Source: Escherichia coli (GTDB lineage: Bacteria; Pseudomonadota; Gammaproteobacteria; Enterobacterales; Enterobacteriaceae). Taken from it: a DNA stretch of 64,000 nucleotides. This document shows positions 1-507 of this stretch, piece after piece. The notes under the pieces are model-generated. The model saw nothing but the letters and a program-made list of their open reading frames with translations. It was not told the DNA's origin and ran no database searches. The stretch is taken from the NCBI RefSeq assembly GCF_022846255.1, contig NZ_AP025682.1. One strand, written 5' to 3'. Positions within the stretch are counted from its first letter, which is position 1, and every line of letters starts with the position of its first letter. A program made the translations under genes and the position numbers.

Positions 1-177
1 ACCGTTGGGACGTTGCGCCGGATCGAACCTATTTCAAGTCCTGGCTACCGGACGGGTGGTGCTGCAGGTGGTGCCCTGATCCGGAGTGCAACATCGTGGT
101 CCAACATACGTAAACCAGTATCGACAGGCAGTGTAAGGGTAAGGTGCTGGTGTTGCGCTCCTTAATAAGGAGAGCGG

Positions 178-267
178 ATGGACACGCTGACACAAAAGTT
201 AACCGTGCTCATTGCTGTACTGGAGCTATTAGTGGCTCTGTTACGGTTGATTGATTTGTTGAAGTAA
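178..267 (+). CDS. candidate small hydrophobic protein, 29 aa (MDTLTQKLTVLIAVLELLVALLRLIDLLK)
   Basis: ATG at 178 preceded by AAGGAG (167-172, 5-nt spacer) lying inside the perfect palindrome CTCCTTAATAAGGAG (158-172); stop TAA 265-267; GC-rich hairpin follows at 289-312. Below the size cut-off of the supplied ORF track. No homology search possible. Confidence 0.3.
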   Translation: MDTLTQKLTVLIAVLELLVALLRLIDLLK

Positions 268-288
268 CGGGCAAATTGAAACGCATCT

Positions 289-314
289 AAGGGGGAATAC
301 CGTTTCCCCCTTTA
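289..314 (+). terminator. putative intrinsic terminator hairpin (AAGGGGGAA-loop-TTCCCCCTT) after the small ORF
   Basis: 9-bp perfect stem with 6-nt loop, followed by TTTAATAAAG; the U-tract is imperfect. Confidence 0.35.
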
Positions 315-330
315 ATAAAGCTATACTCGC

Positions 331-367
331 CATACTTCAAGTTGCATATGCTGCGACTTGAAGTATG
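331..367. repeat. 37-bp near-perfect inverted repeat (CATACTTCAAGTTGCA-TATGC-TGCGACTTGAAGTATG)
   Basis: Arms of 16 nt with one mismatch, read directly from the sequence; lies in a non-coding AT-rich stretch. Confidence 0.5.
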
Positions 368-507
368 ATGAGTATATTATTCTATTTCTTGGTTGAATAT
401 ATTCTGTAGTTCACAATTAAAAATTGCTATTACAGTTTCATGTGATTCACCTCGTAATTTCCGCTCATCAATAAACTCATCTCTTGTATAAATCAACGCA
501 TCATTTA

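Follow-up and report, generated by a model that had tools for sequence, protein, structure and literature searches.

The window analyzed here is a stretch of 64,000 nucleotides of Escherichia coli DNA (contig NZ_AP025682.1), read on one strand from 5' to 3'. Judged from its sequence, the segment at positions 1-507 is, with a probability of about 0.93, the yehK-proximal half of the spacer between yehK and yehL, and contains a single-copy zor/orz type I toxin-antitoxin locus, a short ERIC element and the frameshifted 3' third of yehK. Nothing contradicts the zor/orz identification. The yehL gene, the Orz antitoxin gene and the divergent promoters of the locus are located 5 to 256 bp past the left edge of the window.

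Positions outside the window are given for the reference locus of E. coli O150:H6 FEX669 (NZ_CP065152), here called L001, in which window position 1 is position 4001. Window positions 1-760 are 100% identical to FEX669, and partial or full matches were found in 5244 of the 5426 complete E. coli genomes that were used for prevalence counts. The loci compared included those of K-12 MC4100 (L002), O157:H7 (L003), CUWW06 (L004), PA45B (L006), 14EC017 (L007), MS 115-1 (L012) and S88 (L015), as well as E. whittamii (L018) and Escherichia sp. MOD1-EC7003 (L020).

Toxin-antitoxin locus

The toxin half of the zor/orz locus occupies positions 4-316 on the plus strand and consists of a 5' untranslated region (UTR), an open reading frame (ORF) and a terminator. 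The small plus-strand ORF already noticed in the first-pass annotation of the segment is present at 178-267. Its translation is a hydrophobic toxin of 29 aa (MDTLTQKLTVLIAVLELLVALLRLIDLLK, followed by a stop codon) that is identical, including the ALLRL motif, to the ZorO peptide given in section 4.3 of PMC6669753, where the peptide was synthesized by Otsuka et al. A search of NCBIfam returned no family matching ZorO or either fragment of yehK; there is no ZorO model in that collection.

The zor 5' UTR is 174 nt long (4-177, plus strand). The transcription start site (TSS) is placed at window position 4, as obtained from the ATG at 178 and the published UTR length, and the sub-features, all on the plus strand, were positioned by the published numbering of EDL933 (PMC5397157). 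The delta-28 processing site falls at about 31/32 and the EAP region (+73 to +102) at 76-105. The conserved motif GGAGTG, located by sequence match at 83-88, is inside EAP. The published coordinates of the ribosome-binding site (RBS; +164 to +169) land exactly on AAGGAG at 167-172. The UTR is near-identical to the EDL933 copies and, at the level of sequence, has what RBS sequestration and an EAP/standby region call for, within an RNA structure that is predicted only. Downstream of the ORF, RNA folding and conservation point to an intrinsic-terminator hairpin of zor at 289-312 on the plus strand (AAGGGGGAA/UUCCCCCUU) with a weak tail (UAAUAAAG). The hairpin has a folding energy of -15.3 kcal/mol (z = -3.6) and is conserved in both O157:H7 copies.

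The antitoxin gene was found on the minus strand at L001 3857-3932, 69-144 bp left of the window, where the Rfam model OrzO-P (RF02083) scored 99.9 bits against a gathering threshold of 60. The zor promoter (plus strand, TTGCAA-16-TATAAT) occupies L001 3969-3996 and ends 5 nt left of the window, and the orz promoter (minus strand, TTGCAA-17-TATAAT) has its TATAAT ending at L001 3946. Both divergent promoters match the consensus at 10 of 12 positions. The palindromic -35 hexamer TTGCAA (L001 3969-3974) is common to the two and is read both ways, so that their -35 elements overlap completely; the promoter pair as a whole spans L001 3946-3996, lying 5 to 55 bp outside the left window edge.

Nucleotides 1-20 of Orz are complementary to window positions 86-105 at 19 of 20 positions (13 + 6 pairs, with one G/A mismatch), which identifies the Orz pairing site on the plus-strand UTR. 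According to experiments, Orz must form no fewer than 15 pairs with the zor UTR in a continuous run, or 17 if they are discontinuous with one mismatch (PMC11264685), and the pairing found here reaches the 17 discontinuous pairs with one mismatch. This statement refers to the 20-nt core seen by eye. An RNAduplex calculation with the whole UTR and Orz over-extended the duplex (-62 kcal/mol, against -63.8 kcal/mol for one shuffled Orz) and was not used.

The zor family was described "between yehI and yehL" in O157:H7 EDL933, and in most E. coli as tandem or single copies (Fozo et al. 2010, PMC2887945). The locus is absent from MG1655, with an intergenic region of 0.3-kb as opposed to 1.2-kb (PMC2887945). 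Across genomes, approximately 25% have one copy, 42% have two and approximately 30% have orz only (PMC11264685); the single-copy state is therefore common.

The spacer between zorP and zorO in O157:H7 (L003 3316-3463), and the corresponding DNA of E. whittamii, are AT-rich and weakly resemble the C-terminus of yehK on the minus strand. Between the O157:H7 spacer (YKIDEFINKNELYDELIKTVIILL) and yehK (YIRDECIDERKLRGESPETVIAIF), tblastn gave a weak match with 9 of 24 residues identical (E = 0.026, for a tiny search space). It hints that an ancient tandem duplication of zor may have included the end of a yehK-like gene.

ERIC element

Behind the zor terminator, positions 322-376 contain a short ERIC/IRU repeat of 55 bp (no strand). 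An inverted-repeat search found 25-nt arms at 322-346 and 352-376, with 88% complementarity and a 5-nt loop at 347-351. The near-perfect palindrome reported earlier is real and forms the core of this element: 331-346 and 352-367 pair at 15 of 16 positions. As RNA, the palindrome folds with -33.1 kcal/mol (z = -8.5), and none of 200 shuffled sequences folded as well. For the window, Rfam gave nothing beyond sub-threshold matches of plant microRNAs on the palindrome (approximately 20 bits against gathering thresholds of 195-230), which are generic hairpin matches.

ERIC/IRU elements are 127-bp palindromes resembling MITEs (miniature inverted-repeat transposable elements), with terminal inverted repeats, TA ends and a target duplication (PMC2229807, PMC10969869, PMC3184786). 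Window positions 322-355 differ from the left end of a canonical ERIC, the copy between yajO and dxs, at 3 of 34 positions, and the right end reads GAGTATA. A 25-nt ERIC-arm pattern with up to 3 mismatches matched the 64-kb window once, at 331-355 with 1 mismatch, where 0 matches are expected by chance. In the first-pass annotation the palindrome was named as a possible site for a regulator or for recombination, and a search for it elsewhere in the genome was proposed. A 75-nt query centred on the palindrome was found at 26,784 places in 5425 of the 5426 genomes (median 5 per genome). Homologous copies are thus present at unrelated loci, and the palindrome is a member of the ERIC repeat family instead. 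A canonical 127-bp ERIC lies between yajO and dxs, and a 55-bp short form near yafP, in the rtcB/prfH-yafP spacer. In CUWW06 (L004 2400-2560), a full ERIC followed directly by a short 55-bp ERIC is located in the regulatory spacer of the speFL-speF leader.

The sequences of the standard ERIC-PCR primers, ERIC1R and ERIC2, occur together in 233 papers. They match the cores of full ERIC copies with 0-3 mismatches (2-3 in the OV24 core). At the zor-yehK site the core is present in OV24, PA45B, S88, Escherichia sp. E1V33 and Escherichia sp. MOD1-EC7003. In the alignment, the short form equals a full ERIC minus 72 bp between 8-bp direct repeats (CTGCGACT). Since full copies at the same site keep the core, and the 72 bp are gone between the CTGCGACT repeats, the copy in the window is an internally deleted derivative of ERIC.

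The site is occupied differently in different strains. OV24 carries a full 127-bp ERIC, O157:H7 and O104:H4 the 55-bp short form, and MS 115-1 none, and in PA45B and S88 the ERIC at this site contains an extra internal insert of approximately 78 bp. An ERIC-free allele was found in at least 213 E. coli genomes, the O157-type short form in 886 and the window-type form in 90. Among other Escherichia, sp. E1V33 has a full ERIC and sp. MOD1-EC7003 an insert-bearing ERIC at the same site. In E. whittamii the yehK stop codon is the same and zor is present twice, and the site is empty of ERIC and holds a single TA (aataaacTAttattc); the filled site reads aataaagcTA[...]TAttattc. Because empty and full sites are seen in other Escherichia lineages, ERIC must have been inserted at the TA that directly follows the yehK stop codon, and it is old at this site. 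The insert of approximately 78 bp is GC-rich (gggttattcggcccatccatgg...ccgctccatgcggatttg; L006 about 955-1035, also in L015 and L020) and has a fixed internal position in ERIC. It is common to E. coli strains and another Escherichia lineage (MOD1-EC7003).

The right arm in the window (gaaGtatGATgag) differs from that of the full-length ERIC of OV24 (gaaTtatCTAgag) by four clustered substitutions at positions 363, 367, 368 and 369, and one further change is in the loop, at 348. These substitutions bring the right arm close to an inverted copy of an ERIC left end. The hairpin is about twice as stable as that of the O157 short form, which has -17.3 kcal/mol. An exact 40-mer (336-375) was found in 90 of the 5426 genomes, always once; the carriers include Nissle 1917, CFT073, ABU 83972 and ATCC 25922, and look like one clonal group. 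A simple quasi-palindrome correction templated by the left arm fits only two of the four right-arm substitutions and is not a full explanation. One other locus has, in 981 genomes, an ERIC left end that carries the matching CATC variant. The presence of the ERIC end TATACTCATCATACTTCAAGT in the CFT073/Nissle lineage would point to ectopic gene conversion as the source of the right arm, its absence to local template switching and point mutation.

Deletion in K-12-type strains

A segment of 325 bp (window 35-359, no strand), identified by comparison of FEX669 with K-12 MC4100 and 14EC017, is missing in K-12 and in every 'orz-only' strain. Within it are the ORF and the terminator, the greater part of the zor UTR and the left two-thirds of ERIC; its boundaries are ambiguous by 2 nt (TT microhomology). 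The spacer between yehK and yehL measures 306 bp in K-12, 631 bp here and 1240 bp in O157:H7, and the megablast alignment of K-12 to the window starts only from about 370. The junction of K-12 MC4100 and 14EC017 reads ccggatcggaccaattt followed by gaattatttagagtata and ttattc. In K-12, the Orz gene is kept together with the zor promoter and roughly 27-31 nt of zor UTR, fused to the last 17 nt of the ERIC right arm (GAATTATTTAGAGTATA). This retained end is identical to the right end of ERIC in Escherichia sp. E1V33 and MOD1-EC7003, and because of that match the event is read as a deletion in the K-12-type lineage, with no insertion here. The deleted stretch begins at UTR position +31 and stops 17 bp short of the right end of ERIC; its loss removed the toxin and left an orphan Orz.

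The first-pass annotation had suggested a strain-specific junction or indel, to be refuted if an alignment showed the same sequence in K-12. K-12 differs, as it is without 35-359, and to this extent the suggestion stands; the extra DNA is the published zor/orz locus and no anonymous junction.

An exact 42-mer of the K-12 junction occurs in 1840 of the 5426 genomes (in 1830 of them at an identity of at least 99%). This number matches the approximately 30% of 'orz-only' strains and the OrzPmg RNA of Shore et al. The Orz gene of K-12 has been reported as 100% identical to orzP (PMC11264685). The toxin-loss deletion behind the orphan OrzP RNA of K-12 thus ends inside ERIC; the zor/orz literature examined makes no mention of ERIC or of a deletion endpoint inside it. 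An 11-nt inverted repeat (30-40 and 355-365; TATTTCAAGTC and GACTTGAAGTA) brackets the segment deleted in K-12, with the breakpoints at mirrored positions. It may be due to chance, or may have aided the deletion.

The yehK pseudogene and gene order

The yehK gene is a pseudogene at 377-693 on the minus strand (L001 4377-4693), annotated in RefSeq as "frameshifted". DNA alignment to K-12 yehK revealed a 1-nt deletion at approximately 512-515, which changes GACCCG to GACCAC. The resulting premature stop codon at 508-510 cuts the frame off after 61 of its 105 codons; the other 44 can still be read in the other (+2) frame as PLINDALIYTRDEFIDERKLRGESHETVIAIFNCELQNIFNQEIE, up to the original TAA at 377-379. 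The AT-rich tract reported for the segment is present (377-507, with a GC content of 29% against 50.7% for the whole window). It had been regarded as spacer DNA next to a yehK gene that ends at 508. The homology to yehK continues out of frame to 377, and the tract is the out-of-frame 3' end of yehK. The gene is also annotated as frameshifted in OV24, PA45B, S88 and GABEEC132, and is intact in K-12, O157:H7 and O104:H4. In the ERIC-free strain MS 115-1 (L012 987-1340), the yehK stop is TAT and not TAA, and the ORF is 12 codons longer. This extended yehK crosses the zor terminator on the opposite strand; its product of 117 aa is annotated as 'hypothetical protein'.

The RefSeq annotation of FEX669 lists yehP, yehM, yehL, yehK and yehI on the minus strand, and the K-12 order is intact. 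The gene order given in the first-pass annotation was correct, as was the observation that 1-507 is without a long ORF on the minus strand, where none exceeds 54 aa (the next two are 53 and 39 aa). The start of yehL is indeed not inside the window. It is neither missing nor displaced: yehL is an intact coding sequence of 1089 bp (L001 2657-3745, minus strand), adjacent past the left edge, with its start codon 256 bp left of window position 1. The apparent absence of yehL comes from the position of the window edge, 256 bp short of the gene. The order yehI-yehK-yehL was kept in all ten strains inspected. In the RefSeq tables of the 11 genomes inspected, nothing is annotated between yehL and yehK; zorO, the Orz RNA and ERIC are all unlisted. 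On the other side of yehK, yehI encodes a DUF4132 protein of 1210 aa (window 754-4386, minus strand; L001 4754-8386), which was identified from the ORF list and RefSeq and fixes the gene order. A further DUF4132 ORF of 1264 aa is located upstream of yehI (4396-8190, minus strand) and is intact; yehH/molR (b4499) of K-12 is annotated as a pseudogene.

Interpretation and alternative explanations

The segment resolves into four known or ordinary parts, namely an effect of the window edge, the zor/orz locus, an internally deleted ERIC and a frameshifted yehK. The apparent gap in gene order arises from the window cut, and the DNA is that of a toxin-antitoxin locus studied since 2010 and a classic enterobacterial repeat. 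As RefSeq omits zorO and ERIC, readers of the raw sequence will keep rediscovering both. The zorO locus and ERIC have already been described, and what is added here is minor: the toxin deletion bounded by ERIC, with one junction in many genomes, and the symmetrical hairpin of a uropathogenic and probiotic lineage (CFT073, Nissle 1917 and others), which places a much more stable hairpin directly behind zorO.

The mechanism of the toxin module is known from experiments on the EDL933 locus (PMC3919570, PMC5397157, PMC6669753). By analogy, the full-length zor UTR would fold so as to bury the RBS, and the loss of the first 28 nt by delta-28 5' processing would expose the EAP/standby region and favor translation. 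The divergent Orz RNA would pair with the EAP region's 3' end, here window 86-105, block translation and trigger RNase III-dependent decay. ZorO that escapes this control would insert in the inner membrane and collapse the membrane potential. Toxicity on overproduction and rescue by the cognate small RNA (sRNA) were shown for the EDL933 genes only (PMC3919570; PMC2887945). The ERIC copy, a non-autonomous MITE-like palindrome, would end the yehI-yehK transcript in a strong RNA hairpin that also follows the weak terminator of zor, and would insulate the convergent zor and yehI-yehK units from each other.

Several points weigh against this picture. The TSS, the processing site and the function are carried over from EDL933 by sequence identity. 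The copy of the locus appears to be a mosaic of the EDL933 zorP/orzP and zorO types: among 59 sites that distinguish the two O157:H7 copies, 52 are P-type, 6 are O-type and 1 is neither. The P-type stretches comprise the pairing region together with the sRNA and the bulk of the UTR, and the O-type stretches the peptide (residue T3) and the terminator, after which ERIC follows as in the zorO copy. The name 'zorO' consequently fits the protein sequence rather than the locus type. The zor terminator escaped a consensus terminator scan, its T run being short, and was accepted because folding and conservation support the hairpin. The ERIC copy of the window is without the central core, and neither ERIC1R nor ERIC2 matches it at up to 5 mismatches. 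The insulating role of the hairpin is one that we purely infer.

There is an even chance that the ERIC copy is a selectively neutral passenger without effect on zorO or yehK, and that its symmetry in the lineage is a mutational accident. Consistent with this, empty, short, full and insert-bearing alleles vary freely at the site in the numbers given above, yehK is a pseudogene in strains with the symmetrical allele, and the 90 carriers look like a single clonal group. Against neutrality, two reviews (PMC2229807, PMC10969869) cite reports that ERIC RNA changes how stable co-transcribed mRNAs are in Yersinia, and the hairpin is very likely transcribed here, because it begins with the first base after the yehK stop codon and is located 9 nt past the zor terminator hairpin. 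A literature search linking yehK, yehL or orzP with ERIC found nothing relevant.

A more active ERIC is conceivable, although we consider it unlikely. It would have supplied the right breakpoint of the toxin deletion, and the hairpin of the lineage, remodelled by template switching inside the quasi-palindrome or by conversion with a different ERIC copy as donor, would be a two-way insulator that changes toxin expression. If so, one 325-bp deletion removed ZorO and kept Orz in about one third of E. coli, K-12 included, and the CFT073 / Nissle 1917 / ATCC 25922 lineage gained a near-perfect hairpin with 25-bp arms.

It is very improbable that the palindrome is a dedicated operator or site-specific recombination site for zorO or yehK and no member of a repeat family. 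A long, near-perfect inverted repeat between convergent genes would fit such a function, as would its greater symmetry and stability in the lineage (-33.1 vs -17.3 kcal/mol). However, the arms are the terminal inverted repeats of ERIC, full and insert-bearing ERICs occupy exactly the same site in other strains, and identical short forms turn up in unrelated surroundings, near yafP and between speFL and speF. The same zor genes and yehK stop occur in E. whittamii without any palindrome, and the zor locus of MS 115-1 is likewise without one. The summary table of a review gives ERIC no DNA motif beyond the terminal repeats (PMC2229807).

A slightly smaller chance still is left to the view that K-12 shows the ancestral, empty state and that zor came in on a small mobile cassette with CAAGTC...GACTTG as its bounding inverted repeats. 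The DNA that K-12 lacks does start with CAAGTC and end with GACTT(G), and the 11-nt inverted repeat brackets it, but short repeats of 10-11 nt that occur twice within 1 kb are no more than chance would give. What K-12 has of the locus is the zor promoter and approximately 31 nt of the UTR, and of ERIC it has just the right-hand 17 nt and nothing of the left arm; this is the trace of a deletion and not a target site. Its Orz gene is 100% identical to orzP. Moreover, E. whittamii and two further Escherichia lineages also carry zor/orz, as one copy or two, and a full ERIC accompanies it in some cases and not in others.

Finally, a strain-specific rearrangement that displaced or removed the yehL start would agree with the lack of a long minus-strand ORF in 1-507 and with the K-12 difference over 35-359, but it is refuted for practical purposes by the intact yehL 256 bp away in a genome of 100% identity, followed by yehM and yehP in K-12 order, and by the gene order in the ten strains inspected.

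Comparison with known systems

The closest known system is zorO-orzO/zorP-orzP of EDL933 (z3289/z3290; Fozo 2010, Wen 2014 and 2017, Shore et al. 2024). The locus described here shares with it the chromosomal site, the identical 29-aa ZorO, the UTR length, the RBS, the EAP region, the GGAGTG motif and the terminator, as well as a divergent Orz sRNA with a strong OrzO-P match. It differs in having one copy instead of two and in an sRNA and pairing region of the orzP/zorP type (52 of 59 diagnostic sites); within the mosaic, the peptide, the terminator and the ERIC on the yehK side follow the zorO copy.

The systems tisB-istR-1 and shoB-ohsC resemble zor/orz in their long structured 5' UTR with a standby site, in activation by 5' processing and in a divergent sRNA that pairs far upstream of the RBS (PMC5397157, PMC2887945). 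Their sequences and chromosomal loci are unrelated to zor/orz.

The palindrome shares with ERIC/IRU elements the terminal inverted repeats TATACTC...GAGTATA, the arm CATACTTCAAGTTGCATGTGCTGCG, the TA at both ends and the single TA of the empty site. It is intergenic and beside a stop codon, has several dispersed copies per genome, and is replaced by a full ERIC at the same site elsewhere. It differs in its length of 55 bp: the 72-bp centre with the primer sites is absent, and the copy would therefore escape ERIC-PCR.

The orphan antitoxin OrzPmg of MG1655, described as 'orz-only' (Shore et al. 2024, PMC11264685), represents the state in which the Orz gene and the zor promoter are kept and the toxin is gone. 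The window contains the toxin-bearing counterpart of this state.

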